Assembly: GCA_964624635.1 (NCBI GenBank)
Contig: CAZUXM010000010.1
Coordinates: forward strand, 3,462 to 67,461
Direction of reading: 5' to 3'
DNA from: an uncultured Candidatus Competibacteraceae bacterium
Lineage (GTDB): Bacteria > Bacteroidota > Bacteroidia > CAIKAF01
Length of the DNA: 64,000 nt
Under the pieces are notes generated by a model that did not search any database, was not told the DNA's origin, and saw nothing but the letters and a program-made list of their open reading frames with translations. Of this stretch, positions 9,151 to 20,198 are shown piece by piece. Within the stretch, counting starts at the first letter, position 1. Every line of letters begins with the position of its first letter. The translations under genes were made by a program, and so were the position numbers.

Positions 9151-12100
9151 CTAATAACCTTGTTTAATGATGATAGGTTTAGAAACCATATTATCACTAG
9201 TAGAGATTAATAAATAGTAGGTGGCCGAAGCCAAATAACTAAAATCAAATGTATGATTTTGTTCAGTTAGCATACCAGAATAAATTACCTGACCCAATGA
9301 GTTCAATAATTTCACTTCAGTATTTTCTGTTGGCATCTCAGCTAAACTTAGTGTAAAAATACCAGTACTTGGATTAGGGTAAATATTAGCTAACAATTGT
9401 CCATCTTCACCTTCTATTCCTAAACATGGATCAACCACCACTATTTGGTTCTGTGTCCATGTATTTCCATTACCATCATCAAAAGTCCATATCACCAGAT
9501 AGGTGCCAGGTAGGTTGTAGGTAATAGGATCTGTAGTGGTTCCAGTGATTAAATCTCCTGAACAATTATCAGATGCTGTAGGAGGAGCAGGAATTGTTGT
9601 AATACAATTTCCAACTACGTTAGGCAAAAACACCAATGAAGGAACAGGAGGGTCAACATCAATTACCGTTACCGTTTGGGTTTGAGTAGATATATTGCCT
9701 CTTCCATCGTCATATGTCCATGTGATGTTATAAGTTCCAGCATCATTATATGATAGAGGATCAGTAGTTGTTGCCGTAATAGTACCTTCACAAGCATCAG
9801 TAGCTGTTGGTATTGTTGATATAAGCACGGTACATGTATCTGATATAGCCGCTAATGGTGCAACATCTGGCACCGGAGCTATTGAATCATTTATGATAAC
9901 TGTTTGTAAAAGCACAGACGTATTTCCAGCTAAATCTGCAAATGTCCATGTAACAGTATAGGTACCATTAACATCATAGGTAAGAGGATCTGAAGTAGTT
10001 CCTGTAACAGTTCCATCGCAGTTATCTTCTAATGTAGGTGCCGGACTTCCTAAAACTGCAGAACAAGGATCATTAATAGTTGGTAAAACTATTTCACAAC
10101 CTATTATTCCAGTAAATGTTTCATCTTCACCTCCATTAACTGTTCCTGATGAGATTACTGAACTCCCGCAAGTAATTTCAAAGTCAAGAATATTATCATT
10201 CCAGAATCCTTGAGTTTCAGCAAAGAAAGTAAGTGGTTCAAGTGCTCCTGAAATATCAATTTGTTCAGCAAGTAATCCAGGAGAACCCAAAGCAGGATAA
10301 GGACCGCCACTTGCAATTAAAGTATTGGTACTATCATATAGCTCCCAAGAACCCTCGTCAAGATTAAAACCGCCATAATAAATGCTAAGTACAAGTGCAC
10401 CGCCATTGGTTGCTGGAGCTAAATTATCTACAACGGTTACATCAAACGAACAAGTTGAACTATTCCCTGAAGCATCTACCGCTTCAAAGGTTACAGTAGT
10501 TGTTCCTACTGGGAAAACAGATCCTGAGGTAGGGCCTGCAACTTGTGTTACTGTTGGTACAGGAACCGGGGTAAGCGAAATTGGCATATTATACAACCAA
10601 CTGATAATATTTTGACGCAAATTGGCAGCATCAGGCAGAGGTGAATGGAAATTTGGTAAGGTCATTCCACCAAAAGTAGCTATACCGCTACCCCATGTTT
10701 TGGACGCAAACTGAACGTCTCCACAACCTTGTAACATATTGGTTAAACCTGTACCTGTTACATAAGCATGTGAAAAACTACCTCCTGCATATCCGGTTGT
10801 AGTGCAAGGTAAAAATGGTCCGGCAAAAATCGGATCAGATGGGGTAACAGCATCTACTGGTCCGTTACAATCTGAACCTCCACCGTAATTTAATGTAGTT
10901 CCACCAAAGCCAAAATCAATATTACCCCCTTCGTTTGGAGCAGCATTAATAAATATAGTTCCTCCGTTAAATACATATGTTTCTATTGCGGGAAGATTTG
11001 TTGCTAAAAATGCAGATAACTCGCTGGCATTAGCATCACTTCCTTCCAGAAATACAAATTTAGTAGCAGTACTAAAAACTGTAGATACATTTGCGGTTTC
11101 ATAAAACTCCGGTATCCATCCTCCTGCACCAAATACTGCATTCATTGCAGTTAAATTATTATTGCTAGTTGCAAAAGACCATGGCTCACCTGCTACATTT
11201 GAACGGATATAATAAGCATCGGTACCAGTATAAACATCTGCACAATTATCTGTTGCTATAGGATTAGAAAAACTAAATACTGCTCCGCAAGTCCCCGGAT
11301 CACTACCCATAGTAGAGTCATTAATACAGTTTATTACCGGTGGAGTAGCATCCGGAGATAAAATTACGTTTTGTGTTTGAGAACTTGAGTTTCCATTTCC
11401 ATCATCATAAATCCATGTAATGGAGTAAGAACCTCCGACTGTATATACAGTCGGATCAGTAGTAGTTCCATCTATAGAACCAACACAATTATCAGTAGCT
11501 GTTGGTGGGGTTGCTACAATGTAACAACTTCCTGTTAAATCAGGTAATAACGCAACGTCAGGAGTTGGAGCAGTGGCATCTACCTGAGTTAGGTTTAAAA
11601 CAAAATCTCCTGTTTCAGTACCTGAACCATGTACAAGAATATAATAGGTTGTTCCACCGGCTCCTGCCCATGTAGCTTCAGACTGAGTTGTACAAAAATC
11701 ATCATTTCCTGCAATACAATTTAATGCACCACAAGTTCCATCAAATACACTTATTTGTGAATTATAAGTAGTTCCTGTACATAAACTAGCCGTAATATTA
11801 CTTGAACAAGTAGTCGTAAAAGTATACCATACTCCACCAGCTGTTGGAGCAGTGGCTGTTCCACATAGGGCTACTGCATCAATGTTAGAACAATTGGTGG
11901 TACCATTAGTTGTACCCGGCGTAATAGCTATTGCATCTGCACAATCATCATTGGCTGGAGCTTCAGAAGATACTGTTAGAGTATAATCTCCGCTTTGAGT
12001 ATTATAGCCTTTAACTAATATCCAGTAAATGGTTCCGGGAGTTGTTGGAACATCTGTAAGTTGAGATTGCGTTCCGCAATCATCGTCGTTTGCATCAATA

Positions 12101-13187: not shown

Positions 13188-13622
13188 TTATTTAATGCCT
13201 TTTAGTTTTTTATATTCTGTTGGATTATTTTCAAACCATGTTTTGATAGCAGCATTGTACATTGTTTTATCTGTTTCTACATTTCCTGTGTTGATGTACT
13301 TAGGAAAGCCCGCCATATTTTCAAAATCCCATGATTTTTTACCTTCTTCTGAGGTAATTTTCATAGAAAGAGGACCATTGTGATTTTCTCTAATCCACTT
13401 AAATTTTGCTACTTCATAATTAGCATCATCTAGTTTTTTATCTCCGGTATTTATATATAACGGATAATCTGTTAACTCAACGTTGATGGTAGTGTTGGTC
13501 TGGGCATTACCCATGCTTTTGCTATTGCTTTCTTGCTTAATACGAGAAGTTGACCTTGTATTTTGCGCCATGATATGTCCTGACATAAACAAAAGCACTA
13601 CTACTAAATAAAATTTATTCAT
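13188..13622 (-). CDS. Small secreted protein with two NTG(D/N) motif repeats (cassette A partner)
   Basis: Signal peptide, then YPLYINTGDKKLDDANYEVAKFKWI and FPKYINTGNVETDKTMYNAAIKTWFENNPTEY. The stop is 20 nt before the giant gene A start. Paralogous to 16968..17318. Confidence 0.7.
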   Translation of the reverse strand: MNKFYLVVVLLFMSGHIMAQNTRSTSRIKQESNSKSMGNAQTNTTINVELTDYPLYINTGDKKLDDANYEVAKFKWIRENHNGPLSMKITSEEGKKSWDFENMAGFPKYINTGNVETDKTMYNAAIKTWFENNPTEYKKLKGIK

Positions 13623-17318: not shown

Positions 17319-17346
17319 AAATCTTAATTTGATGTTTCACCAAATT

Positions 17347-17354
17347 TAACATAT
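17347..17354. repeat. Target-site duplication, left copy (TAACATAT)
   Basis: Identical 8-mer directly abutting both transposon ends; the right copy is at 20191..20198. Confidence 0.85.
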
Positions 17355-17378
17355 TCTGACTATCTGTTTATAGGAAAC
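17355..17378. repeat. Left terminal inverted repeat
   Basis: TCTGACTATCTGTTTATAGGAAAC is the reverse complement of 20167..20190 with one mismatch. Confidence 0.85.
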
Positions 17379-17400
17379 AAGATTCATAACTAATTGATTA

Positions 17401-17634
17401 TTATATAGATACGCCTCTCATCTTTCCAAGTCTTTTTATCGAATGAATTGAAGATTTTACGTGTATCAACATTTCTTCATATTCGTCAATATTTTGATGA
17501 CTTGGATTCTGTTTAATGAAATTTTCCAACTCTGTTTTAAGATCTTCCAAATTATTGTGAGAAGAAACAATCTTAGTATTCATTTTTTTTCTTTTAGGGA
17601 AGAAAATTAGTAATAATTTATCAAGTATTTTCAT
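17401..17634 (-). CDS. Hypothetical 77-aa protein (passenger; alternative start M18 at 17583)
   Basis: ATG ORF 36 nt downstream of the HTH gene on the same strand. Helical, charged sequence with no recognisable domain. Confidence 0.45.
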   Translation of the reverse strand: MKILDKLLLIFFPKRKKMNTKIVSSHNNLEDLKTELENFIKQNPSHQNIDEYEEMLIHVKSSIHSIKRLGKMRGVSI

Positions 17635-17670
17635 ACTGGTTATATTTTAACCAGGTATAAAGTTTATGAT

Positions 17671-17886
17671 TTATTTCTCCAATAGTTTAGTGATTGAAAC
17701 ACCCAATCCCTCAGAGATTTCCAATAGATATAGATAAGACGGATTTATATTACCAGATTCAAGTCGTTGAATTGATTGTTGGTCTTTATTTACATTACTC
17801 GCAAGATCAGATTGGGTAAGACCTTTACTCAATCTGATTTCCCTAACCCTTTCCCCTAAAGACTTTAATTCCTTGTCTTTTTTCAT
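17671..17886 (-). CDS. XRE/Cro-C1-family helix-turn-helix transcriptional regulator (71 aa)
   Basis: LSKGLTQSDLASNVNKDQQSIQRLESGNINPSYLYLLEISEGLGVSITKLL is a classic HTH_XRE. The track start at 17904 is TTG; trimmed to ATG 17886. Confidence 0.8.
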   Translation of the reverse strand: MKKDKELKSLGERVREIRLSKGLTQSDLASNVNKDQQSIQRLESGNINPSYLYLLEISEGLGVSITKLLEK

Positions 17887-17920
17887 ACCATCAAGATTAT
17901 TCAACCCTGTGGATACTTTT

Positions 17921-17961
17921 CACAACCGATCCGTTGTAAATACAACCAATTTGTTGTATTT
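17921..17961. promoter_or_regulatory. Two tandem palindromic operator-like sites, (C/T)ACAAC-N6-GTTGTA
   Basis: Site 1 is 17921-17938 (CACAACcgatccGTTGTA). Site 2 is 17941-17958 (TACAACcaatttGTTGTA), with arms extendable to 17938-17961. Centres are 20 bp apart, and the sites lie midway in the divergent HTH / T9SS-gene intergenic region. Confidence 0.6.
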
Positions 17962-17993
17962 TTACCCTATTAACTAATTAAAACAAGGATTTT

Positions 17994-18656
17994 ATGACCA
18001 AATGGGTATTAATGATTTTGATCTTGTGTATTAAGATCAATTCATTCTCACAAACCACTTATGAGTTTAGTGTATATGATACAATTGGATGTACTGGGTC
18101 AGGATGTGATTCAGAAACAGATGGGAATATTCAAATAACAATGAATATGGGTGATACACTAAGATTCAAGAATGGAGAACCTGTGATACGTGCAATGTAC
18201 TTACATAAGAATGGTGAATGGCCTATCAATGATGATTCTTACAATCCAGGTGATCTAATATATGGGAATGCAGTCAATCCTGGAAATTATTTAGACACTT
18301 CAATAGTAGTATCAAGTAATTCAGTTTATAAATGTTCTTTTTATAGTCCCTGGTCTTTTATTCATTTCATAAATGTCAAAATAATCATCTCCAATGTTGG
18401 AATTGAAAATAGTAATGATTTTACTTTCAATGTTTATCCAAATCCGACAACTGACTACATAAATATTTCAGGTGAAAATCTAACAGGTTATTCTGTTCAG
18501 GTAGTTGATATTTCAGGGAGATGTATCACCCAAACTATACTCTTACAGAATAACACAATCCTAGACTTATCTAAATCAATTAAGGGAGTGTATTTCCTTC
18601 GGTTAATTGATGGGTCAGGTAAATGTTTATCCACGAAGAAAATTATTAACCAATAA
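17994..18656 (+). CDS. Small secreted protein (220 aa) with T9SS type A CTD (passenger)
   Basis: Signal peptide, a ~130-aa N-terminal domain of unknown function, then FNVYPNPTTDYINISG...GVYFLRLID, typical of a Por_Secre_tail CTD. Confidence 0.75.
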   Translation: MTKWVLMILILCIKINSFSQTTYEFSVYDTIGCTGSGCDSETDGNIQITMNMGDTLRFKNGEPVIRAMYLHKNGEWPINDDSYNPGDLIYGNAVNPGNYLDTSIVVSSNSVYKCSFYSPWSFIHFINVKIIISNVGIENSNDFTFNVYPNPTTDYINISGENLTGYSVQVVDISGRCITQTILLQNNTILDLSKSIKGVYFLRLIDGSGKCLSTKKIINQ

Positions 18657-18668
18657 AAACAATCAATT

Positions 18669-18878
18669 ATGTCATTCAAATCTAGTGAAATTAATTACGG
18701 TGTATTGAAGGTAAAAGGTAGATCAGTTGAAGTCTATGAAAGTTCTTCATCTTATAGTTTAATCAATACCGAAACAGAAGTAGAATCTGCAAATTGGGCT
18801 GGTGATGCGGTTTTGGTGAAATTAAAGAATGGGAAAATGAGACGATACAAGACAAAGACAACATACGAAAATGTATAA
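18669..18878 (+). CDS. Hypothetical 69-aa cytoplasmic protein (passenger)
   Basis: The ATG is 12 nt after the preceding stop and a strong terminator follows. No signal peptide and no recognisable domain. Confidence 0.5.
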   Translation: MSFKSSEINYGVLKVKGRSVEVYESSSSYSLINTETEVESANWAGDAVLVKLKNGKMRRYKTKTTYENV

Positions 18879-18883
18879 ACAAA

Positions 18884-18912
18884 AAACCCTTCCACATCTG
18901 GAAGGGTTTTTT
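18884..18912 (+). terminator. Rho-independent terminator
   Basis: 11-bp stem AAACCCTTCCA-catc-TGGAAGGGTTT running into a T6 tract, 6 nt after the stop. Confidence 0.8.
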
Positions 18913-19160
18913 AATTTTGTCTCATACTTTTTTACAAGTATAGATGAGGTCAAAATTTATTGGAAGGTGATTCCAACGAAAAAATAACTCATCTTTTATG
19001 AGTAACAGTAAATCATTTAAGGAACTTAAAAAGTTCTTGAAACTTTTGTATTTATTACTCGAAATCTTAATCGTTAGTAAAGTAATAATACAAATTCTGT
19101 AATTGAAGGGAGGTCTCACCACCTCCTTTCTTTTTATTATATTCTAAATTTTCAAAAAGT

Positions 19161-20078
19161 TTAATTCCATTTGTGAGAAATTCCTGCAATCAAGAGTCCA
19201 TCGAATGAATCTCTATATTCAAAATTTCTTCTATTAAGTTTATAACAGAATTCGTTTAAGTATAGTTGTAAATATTTATGGTTTATAGAATGATGGACAC
19301 CTAATAATCCTCTTTTAACATTAGAAATAATAGTATGTACCCATGGTAATTTTTTCATACTATCTTTTGGTTTTACCCTCATCTTTTTGTGTTTATTTAC
19401 TACATCAGTAACGTTATTATAACCCCTCCATCCATCAGTTGTTAAAGTAGAACTTTTATCTACTGATTTCTTTAATTCATAATTAATACCTTCTGAACTT
19501 AAATCGTCCATTACAATCATTTTTACATATCCCAGAACTCTTTTCTTTTTATGTTTAAGATTATGATTGATTGGTTCACTTTCAGTCATCACCAACACTG
19601 GTGTTTGTTTTTGACTTCCTCTACCTCTCTTTAATGGTTTCTTAGATTTTGGTTTAACAGATTCAAAGAATCCCTCATCAACTTCTATGTTTCCATCGAG
19701 TTTATAAAGACTATCTCTTTTACCCATTATAGTACGTATTTTTAACATCATATACCAAACTGGTTCATAGAATTTAAGTCCTAATTGTCTCTGTAACTCA
19801 AGTGCAGAGAAGGATTTCTTAGTACTGGTCATTAGGTGTATCGTTATAAACCATATACGGATGGGTAATTGAGATTTTTCCATTATCGTACCTGATTTAA
19901 TATTAGTCCTAGACCTACATACAGAACATTGGAACTTATTGACTGAGTTTAACCAGTAGTGTTTAGTGATAGTTTCACACTTCTTACAGGTTATACCTTG
20001 TTTAAGTCTTTGTTCCTTCAAGTGGTTTATACAACTTTGTTCGTCAGGAAACTTTTGAGTAAATTCTAATAGATTCAT
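19161..20078 (-). CDS. IS1595-family transposase
   Basis: N-terminal zinc-ribbon (CKKCE...CSVCRSRTNIKSGTIMEKSQLPIRIW) and DDE region (IEVDEGFF, TTDGWRGYNNV, NVKRGLLGVHHSINHKYLQLYLNEFCYKLNRRN). Confidence 0.9.
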   Translation of the reverse strand: MNLLEFTQKFPDEQSCINHLKEQRLKQGITCKKCETITKHYWLNSVNKFQCSVCRSRTNIKSGTIMEKSQLPIRIWFITIHLMTSTKKSFSALELQRQLGLKFYEPVWYMMLKIRTIMGKRDSLYKLDGNIEVDEGFFESVKPKSKKPLKRGRGSQKQTPVLVMTESEPINHNLKHKKKRVLGYVKMIVMDDLSSEGINYELKKSVDKSSTLTTDGWRGYNNVTDVVNKHKKMRVKPKDSMKKLPWVHTIISNVKRGLLGVHHSINHKYLQLYLNEFCYKLNRRNFEYRDSFDGLLIAGISHKWN

Positions 20079-20166
20079 ATATCATGAAACGATCAGTAAA
20101 TTGGTATGTTTTACGGAGGTAGCTAAGGATTTATTAAGGAAATATTGGAATTTAATTAAATTTATA

Positions 20167-20190
20167 GTTTCCTATAAACTGATAGTCAGA
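20167..20190. repeat. Right terminal inverted repeat
   Basis: GTTTCCTATAAACTGATAGTCAGA, 88 bp upstream of the transposase ATG. Confidence 0.85.
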
Positions 20191-20198
20191 TAACATAT
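20191..20198. repeat. Target-site duplication, right copy (TAACATAT)
   Basis: Identical to 17347..17354. Confidence 0.85.

Follow-up and report, generated by a model that had tools for sequence, protein, structure and literature searches.

Passenger-carrying subgroups of the IS1595 insertion sequence (IS) family include ISPna2+ and ISNwi1+ in the ISfinder classification. An IS relative with passenger genes is termed a transporter IS (tIS), a category defined on the IS1595 family (Siguier, Gagnevin, and Chandler, 2009, as cited in PMC4611040), and PMC11891212 lists transcription regulators as a passenger class of the IS1595 member ISNha5. An initial sequence-only reading of the DNA treated here had noted that some IS1595 subgroups carry passenger genes, and this was already described, regulators included (PMC4611040, PMC11891212). 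The DNA is a 64-kb stretch of contig CAZUXM010000010.1 from an uncultured member of the Bacteroidota (the window, at its full length), and the element under study occupies positions 17355-20190. We consider it very probable that these 2836 bp are one intact IS1595-family tIS, inserted whole, in which a regulator of the XRE family would gate a cargo protein predicted to be exported. Direct support exists for the full-length transposase, for inverted repeats (IRs) confined to the extreme ends, for the empty site in relatives of the host, and for near relatives moving as whole units.

The terminal IRs at 17355-17378 (TCTGACTATCTGTTTATAGGAAAC, plus strand; distal to the transposase, or IRR in its orientation) and at 20167-20190 (GTTTCCTATAAACTGATAGTCAGA, minus strand; proximal to the transposase start, or IRL) are reverse complements at 23 of 24 positions, the mismatch falling at position 11. 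A repeat search extended the pairing more weakly to 39 nt at 79%. IRL was found by direct reading and by the repeat and mismatch searches alike, and when up to three mismatches were allowed the only IR copies in the window were these two, against an expectation of 0 in 100 shuffles. A perfect 8-bp target site duplication (TSD), TAACATAT, abuts both ends (17347-17354 and 20191-20198, the latter by direct reading), so that the element with one TSD copy measures 2844 nt. The element is AT-richer than its flanks (GC content of 0.26-0.34 vs. 0.35-0.40). The sequence-only reading had placed the IRs and the abutting direct repeat correctly at every coordinate, and it had seen no second IR by the transposase 3' end. 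This was borne out by the mismatch search and by aligning each terminus locally with the interior, where the best matches were at chance level.

One internal candidate at 18987-19007 has the right orientation for an IR but was rejected, as it needs two gaps and scores equal to matches elsewhere in the element. We also rejected a composite transposon, for which two flanking IS copies are lacking; the window holds a single transposase gene and a single IR pair, with no second similarity to the element anywhere in its 64 kb. The passenger genes thus lie within one IR pair with one transposase and no second IS copy, which is the arrangement of a tIS.

The insertion point is in an AT-rich intergenic region between a gene for a 116-aa protein and recJ. 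In two relatives of the host (L178 and L179, with RecJ 78 and 81% identical; loci are cited by our own numbers) the flanking genes are adjacent and none of the cargo genes is present. Gene order there is as in the window, with a large protein of the type IX secretion system (T9SS), a 124- or 156-aa protein, divergent recJ, an HSP20 gene, and an 88-aa gene. The intergenic region is 194 and 217 nt long in L178 and L179, respectively, and the 3051 nt of the window shrink to 207 nt when the element and one TSD copy are subtracted. The reconstructed empty site aligns unbroken across the junction (CACCAAATTTAACATATATTTAAAAAACGTCG in the window, CATCAAACTTAACACTTTTTTAATAATTGTC in L178, and CCCCAAACTTAACATTTTTTTAAAGATCGTC in L179). 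Where the window has its TSD, the uninterrupted site reads TAACACTT in L178 and TAACATTT in L179. The 2836 bp and one TSD copy are wholly absent from the homologous site in both relatives. Because the flanking genes are adjacent in the relatives and the empty site aligns across the junction, the 2836 bp are one insertion, and the cargo genes arrived with it instead of being resident in the host. The intergenic sequences of L178 and L179 match the empty site that had been predicted from the window, and a check for relatives with the passenger genes at this locus but without IRs or TSD found none of those genes in either.

The surroundings of the insertion offered two further observations. On the minus strand, some 23 nt ahead of the ATG of the 116-aa gene, TAAATTTG (17348-17341) fits the -7 promoter motif of the Bacteroidota; L178 and L179 keep it as TAAGTTTG. 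The element sits immediately upstream of this motif, with the TSD overlapping it (17341-17354). The operon for the 116-aa protein and a 1047-aa T9SS protein has probably had the upstream half of its promoter exchanged for the element end. Just downstream of the gene for the 1047-aa protein, at 13227-13622 on the minus strand, lies a distant paralogue of the 116-aa gene (23% identity, E 4e-9).

The transposase gene (19161-20078, minus strand) encodes a full-length IS1595-family protein of 305 aa, as judged by profile matches and by alignment with 10 relatives. Its match to DDE_Tnp_IS1595 (PF12762; 7.1e-27) covers the whole profile (1-153/153), its score against NCBIfam NF033547 is 213 bits (cutoff 75), and its zinc ribbon (PF12760) scores 27.5 bits (cutoff 25.4). 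Pfam and NCBIfam thereby agree with the earlier assignment of a single IS1595-type transposase with zinc ribbon and DDE regions. In the alignment the zinc-ribbon CxxC...CxxC cysteines are invariant and the residues of the catalytic region are all kept. A DDE domain, an N-terminal zinc ribbon, short terminal IRs, and an 8-bp TSD together place the element in the IS1595 family. Exact-sequence look-up returned no identical records for the transposase, RecJ, or the 220-aa cargo protein described below. Among the matches listed, the best for the transposase was 63% identical in GTDB representative genomes and 57% in JGI metagenomes; the best anywhere, in a set of 5.8 billion proteins, was 68%.

We scanned 160 relative loci by script for IRs and TSDs. 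Relatives with transposase identity of 52% or less are mostly canonical elements of 985-1111 bp, with IRs that start nATGAyTATCCG, 8-bp TSDs, and an IRR 30-60 nt past the transposase stop codon. All complete elements with transposase identity of 56% or more are long (2796-4052 bp) and have IRs homologous to those of the window, of the form nnTGACTATCCGTTTATAGGAAAG. Perfect 8-bp TSDs were found at eight related insertions. The long elements with their transposase identities, lengths, and TSDs are L161 (68%, 2977 bp, TTAATTTA), L163/L164 (64%, 3573 bp, AAAAATTA), L165 (64%, 2798 bp, TTACTTTT), L166 (64%, 2796 bp, TAAAATAA), L167/L169 (61%, 3297 bp, TAAATTAT), L001 (63%, 3934 bp, TAATGTAA), and L090 (56%, about 4052 bp, TTCATCAA). 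L165 and L166 share 99.9% identity across 2.8 kb but stand in different contexts with different TSDs, which attests directly to the transposition of such units as a whole. In a neighbor-joining tree of 76 transposases from elements with recognizable ends, the long elements form one clade of 11 (1317-4074 bp, with 0 of the 11 at canonical length), while 55 of the 65 outside it are 985-1111 bp. The claim that the mobile unit is the whole 2836 bp is thus backed both by the empty sites in the two host relatives and by the long near relatives.

Two of these loci are informative about spread. The L165 copy, on a 32.6-kb Logan contig (SRR27041488), sits among genes that match a major head protein, a homing endonuclease, a DNA methyltransferase, and a tail sheath. 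Its carrier is thus a myovirus-like genome or prophage, which suggests phage-borne spread of this IS lineage. The L169 locus is a 3300-bp contig exactly equal to the element and present in 11 samples, which is how multi-copy repeats assemble.

A different extent for the mobile unit is hardly credible on this evidence. It would be a canonical IS of about 1.1-1.2 kb, running from 20190 to a decayed IR near 18990, with the four genes to the left being host DNA and the IR at 17355 a solo remnant or chance match. Such an IS would accord with the 1.0-1.1 kb of most members at or below 52% identity, in which IRR lies 30-60 nt after the stop, and with the weak, correctly oriented IR-like stretch at 18987-19007. 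That stretch, however, needs its two gaps and scores no better than others in the element, the perfect TSD flanks the outer IRs, the host relatives lack all four genes while aligning across the outer junction, and the nearest relatives are all long units. We give more weight, though still regarding it as unlikely, to the idea that this was a true single insertion that has since lost its mobility, the copy being domesticated or in decay and retained because of its cargo or its influence on the neighboring promoter. The window holds a single copy, the collections searched hold no near-identical one, and the element stands within the promoter region of the 116-aa/1047-aa operon. Against this, the transposase is full length with all conserved residues, the IRs have a single mismatch in 24 positions, and the two TSD copies are identical, so there is no sign of decay. 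That the element may still be mobile, as the sequence-only reading proposed, is plausible.

Elements with transposases 52-56% identical (L005, L007, L008, L083, and L085-L087) are 1.3-1.7 kb long, the length of L083 being a contig-limited estimate, with 300-640 nt from stop codon to IRR. They branch beside or within the clade of long elements and may be a first stage of cargo gain, or remnants of its loss. Outside the clade with XRE genes, L033, L074, L110, L119, and L121 (IR ATGATTATCCGCAATACTCCCCAA) measure about 2.0-2.2 kb, and L065 of the same set measures 4.8 kb; these apparently carry cargo independently inside the IS1595 family. Finally, at L037 (5404-6654, in a metagenome-assembled genome of the Chitinophagaceae), the related transposase lacks its N-terminal 75 residues, in place of which an unrelated region of 190 aa is joined in frame. 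This is a decayed copy, which retains the XRE gene, a lipoprotein cargo gene, and the distal IR (9271-9290).

Between elements, DNA-level alignment is confined to the transposase and the IRs, with the addition of the XRE gene for the L165 element. At the protein level, an XRE regulator is present in the window element, L163, L165, L167, L001, L090, and the truncated L037; all complete long elements but one keep it. Wherever present, it stands last, or almost last, ahead of the distal IR and is transcribed outward. In the window this helix-turn-helix (HTH) regulator is encoded at 17671-17886 on the minus strand (HTH_3, 2e-13). The open reading frame (ORF) reaches a TTG at 17904, which would give 77 aa, but the ATG at 17886, giving 71 aa, is the more likely start. 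The window protein is 35-51% identical, varying with the comparison, to the XRE proteins encoded at the same position in related elements, and pairwise XRE identity follows transposase identity (Spearman rho 0.69, over non-independent pairs). Because XRE identity tracks transposase identity, long-term linkage fits better than repeated capture, and the XRE gene appears to be a conserved, co-diverging component of the lineage rather than a chance passenger.

Two tandem palindromes of the form ACAAC-N6-GTTGT at 17922-17957 (17922-17937 and 17942-17957), in the intergenic region between the divergent XRE and T9SS-substrate genes, are putative XRE operators. The window has no other exact match to this form; the two sites are spaced 20 nt apart, and no copy was found between IRL and the transposase start even with one mismatch. 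Most related XRE genes have a palindrome 30-55 nt upstream, such as TCAAC-N6-GTTGA in L165, GTTATCATATATGATAAC in L163, and GTTAACATATATGTTAAC in L001; those of L167 and L090 are weaker. The XRE proteins of L163 and L001 are 75-76% identical, and the base changes that separate their palindromes are paired between the two half-sites and preserve the symmetry.

The gene divergent from XRE is unrelated in sequence between elements, yet its product is envelope-targeted in eight of eight cases. It has a lipobox in L161, L163, L165, L167, L037, and L001, and a signal peptide with a T9SS C-terminal domain in the window and L090. PKD repeats are also found in L001 and a LamG domain in L090. The facing gene of the window (17994-18656, plus strand) encodes a 220-aa protein with an N-terminal signal peptide, which was recognized by reading the sequence, an all-beta domain, and a type A C-terminal sorting domain (Por_Secre_tail PF18962, 1.7e-14; TIGR04183, 2.4e-13, 49.8 bits vs. 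a cutoff of 23). It has the features of a T9SS substrate and would be secreted by a host that uses this system, as indicated by the Por_Secre_tail of an orthologue of the flanking 1047-aa gene. Matches to solved structures were confined to the C-terminal domain, and the AlphaFold2 (AF2) model had a predicted local distance difference test (pLDDT) score of 52 and was not usable.

These parts suggest how the element could work. The transposase would bind the IRs of about 24 bp and insert through 8-bp staggered cuts, as family knowledge implies; to our knowledge, the chemistry of IS1595 transposition has not been worked out experimentally. From the layout, the XRE protein would bind the two palindromes in the 107-bp divergent region and repress both its own gene and the opposing operon, which comprises the 220-aa T9SS substrate and a 69-aa protein. 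The 220-aa protein would cross the envelope by Sec followed by the host T9SS and end up on the cell surface or in the medium. Across the lineage, XRE would be the heritable part of the element and the facing gene a replaceable slot for a cell-envelope protein.

Two other roles for the XRE protein were considered. One is that it chiefly represses the transposase gene, and hence transposition, in place of the facing cargo operon. In favor of this, no other accessory gene is kept throughout the lineage, and XRE diverges in step with the transposase. We nonetheless judge this role improbable and favor the control of cargo, because no copy of the putative operator lies near the transposase promoter and the two that exist are in the XRE/T9SS intergenic region; L161, moreover, is without XRE yet has intact ends and a TSD. 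The other is that XRE is paired with the 77-aa or the 69-aa ORF as a toxin-antitoxin system, or as some other addiction or defense system, that stabilizes the element. Weak matches of XRE to HTH models of antitoxins and controller proteins point that way, as do the positions of 69-aa homologues beside XRE genes, serine recombinases, and a HEPN protein. The matches of XRE are to a generic HTH and far below family cutoffs, however, the 77-aa, 69-aa, and 220-aa proteins match no toxin or defense family, and no small partner is conserved across elements. The 77-aa, 69-aa, and 34-aa ORFs had no match in Pfam, NCBIfam, PADLOC, or PHROGs, so that no recognized toxin family marks a type II toxin-antitoxin module here, and searches of the element proteins with PADLOC and PHROGs returned generic HTH matches only. 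Such a pair is accordingly a very improbable account of the regulator.

Some points weigh against an intact element in which XRE gates an exported cargo. L161, the closest relative, has no XRE; the pairs behind the identity correlation are non-independent; no palindrome was found upstream of the L037 XRE gene; and the proposed binding and repression by XRE are deduced from position and palindromes. Structure and profile searches assigned no function to the N-terminal domain of the 220-aa protein or to the 69-aa protein. The 77-aa ORF between XRE and IRR (17401-17634, minus strand) is doubtful as a gene, with no significant family match, no homologue, and no counterpart in related elements, and has nothing but its open frame in its favor. 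The host genome is covered for 64 kb only. No second copy of the exact element was found in the collections searched, so its own mobility is only plausible.

The 69-aa protein (18669-18878, plus strand) belongs to a small uncharacterized family found on mobile elements and is 43% identical to an ORF of the L001 element. A word-based search returned only the protein itself, while an exhaustive search gave a family of 56 representatives, nearly all of about 69 aa and unannotated. Its AF2 model (pLDDT 68, five strands) had no Foldseek match below E 0.1, and the family profile gave just weak WD40-blade noise against the PDB. Two further settings of homologues were seen, at L181, L183, and L180. 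In one, XRE, 69-aa, and lipoprotein genes stand in a row, with a resolvase and a reverse transcriptase close by. In the other, the 69-aa gene lies directly 3' of that for a serine recombinase of 203 aa, the start and stop codons adjoining, and beside a HEPN_LA2681 gene. By these contexts the family is associated with mobile elements and may be an accessory factor of them.

The transcription unit of the T9SS substrate and the 69-aa protein would end at a strong terminator hairpin with a 14-bp stem and T run (18881-18912, plus strand). The coordinates and domains of the ORFs listed in the sequence-only reading (transposase, XRE, 77-aa, T9SS-targeted protein, and 69-aa) were confirmed. Its statement that genes nearly fill the element needs one correction, for 18913-19160, a gap of about 250 nt between the cargo terminator and the transposase stop codon that contains no sizeable gene. 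This gap holds a hydrophobic 34-aa ORF (18998-19102, MSNSKSFKELKKFLKLLYLLLEILIVSKVIIQIL) and two terminator-like hairpins, one of which follows the ORF at 19105-19130; the ORF and this hairpin (18998-19130, plus strand) form a putative feature. A motif at 18912, TAATTTTG (TAnnTTTG), resembles the Bacteroidota -7 box, and this motif, the 34-aa ORF, and the 19105-19130 hairpin are all convergent with the transposase. The ORF could be a small membrane peptide, a type I toxin-like gene, or nothing. Rfam matches within the element were all below gathering scores and driven by the terminator hairpin. A sigma-70 promoter scan found fewer sites than in shuffles, and the sigma-70 model is inapplicable to Bacteroidota promoters.

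The element is well delimited by the empty site and by a relative caught at two sites. Most pipelines for IS annotation would detect just the 0.9-kb transposase gene and overlook 1.8 kb of cargo. Passenger-bearing IS1595 elements, including those with regulators, are already known, and the window element does not overturn the current understanding of the family. The added interest is modest and lies in the clade-wide pairing of XRE with an envelope gene and in the copy on a phage-like contig. A variable envelope gene paired with XRE inside the IRs throughout the clade, with one copy in a myovirus-like contig, suggests a cheap route for exchanging surface and secreted proteins in the Bacteroidota. 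Insertion within the promoter of a neighboring T9SS-substrate operon may also alter host gene expression. More tentatively, and as a possibility that we would not yet call likely, an uncurated Bacteroidota-wide sub-lineage of IS1595 could act as a minimal surface-protein shuttle. The inherited XRE would gate a swappable slot for a lipoprotein or T9SS substrate, and the unit would move between chromosome and phage. The cargo would perhaps change the cell surface, with phage exclusion, contact-dependent exclusion, immunity, and adhesion among the conceivable roles.

Among named IS, the nearest is ISBbi1, which is IS1595-like and occurs on plasmids of Bacteroides and Myroides. Its transposase is 46% identical over 99% of the length; at this identity the window element would merit a new IS name. 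Canonical Bacteroidota relatives (45-52% transposase identity) share the terminal IR motif of the window element, TGAyTATCCG, but those in the identity range of ISBbi1 are about 1.0-1.1 kb and cargo-free, whereas the window element has 2.8 kb and four or five extra ORFs. Our literature search found no paper joining IS1595, Bacteroidetes, and XRE. Like the tIS of the family (such as ISNha5), the window element has one zinc-ribbon/DDE transposase, short IRs, an 8-bp TSD, and cargo that includes a regulator inside the IRs. Unlike the described tIS, it has a host in the Bacteroidota and a short XRE gene by the distal IR, paired with a variable lipoprotein or T9SS-substrate gene. The regulatory part resembles the C proteins of restriction-modification systems and CI-type XRE repressors of phages in its small XRE HTH, tandem palindromes, and divergent promoter region. 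In those systems this layout serves autoregulation and a gated facing gene; the likeness of the window XRE to them is in layout only, as its scores are far below cutoff. The targets of C proteins and CI are nucleases or lytic functions, whereas the presumed targets of the window XRE encode envelope proteins.

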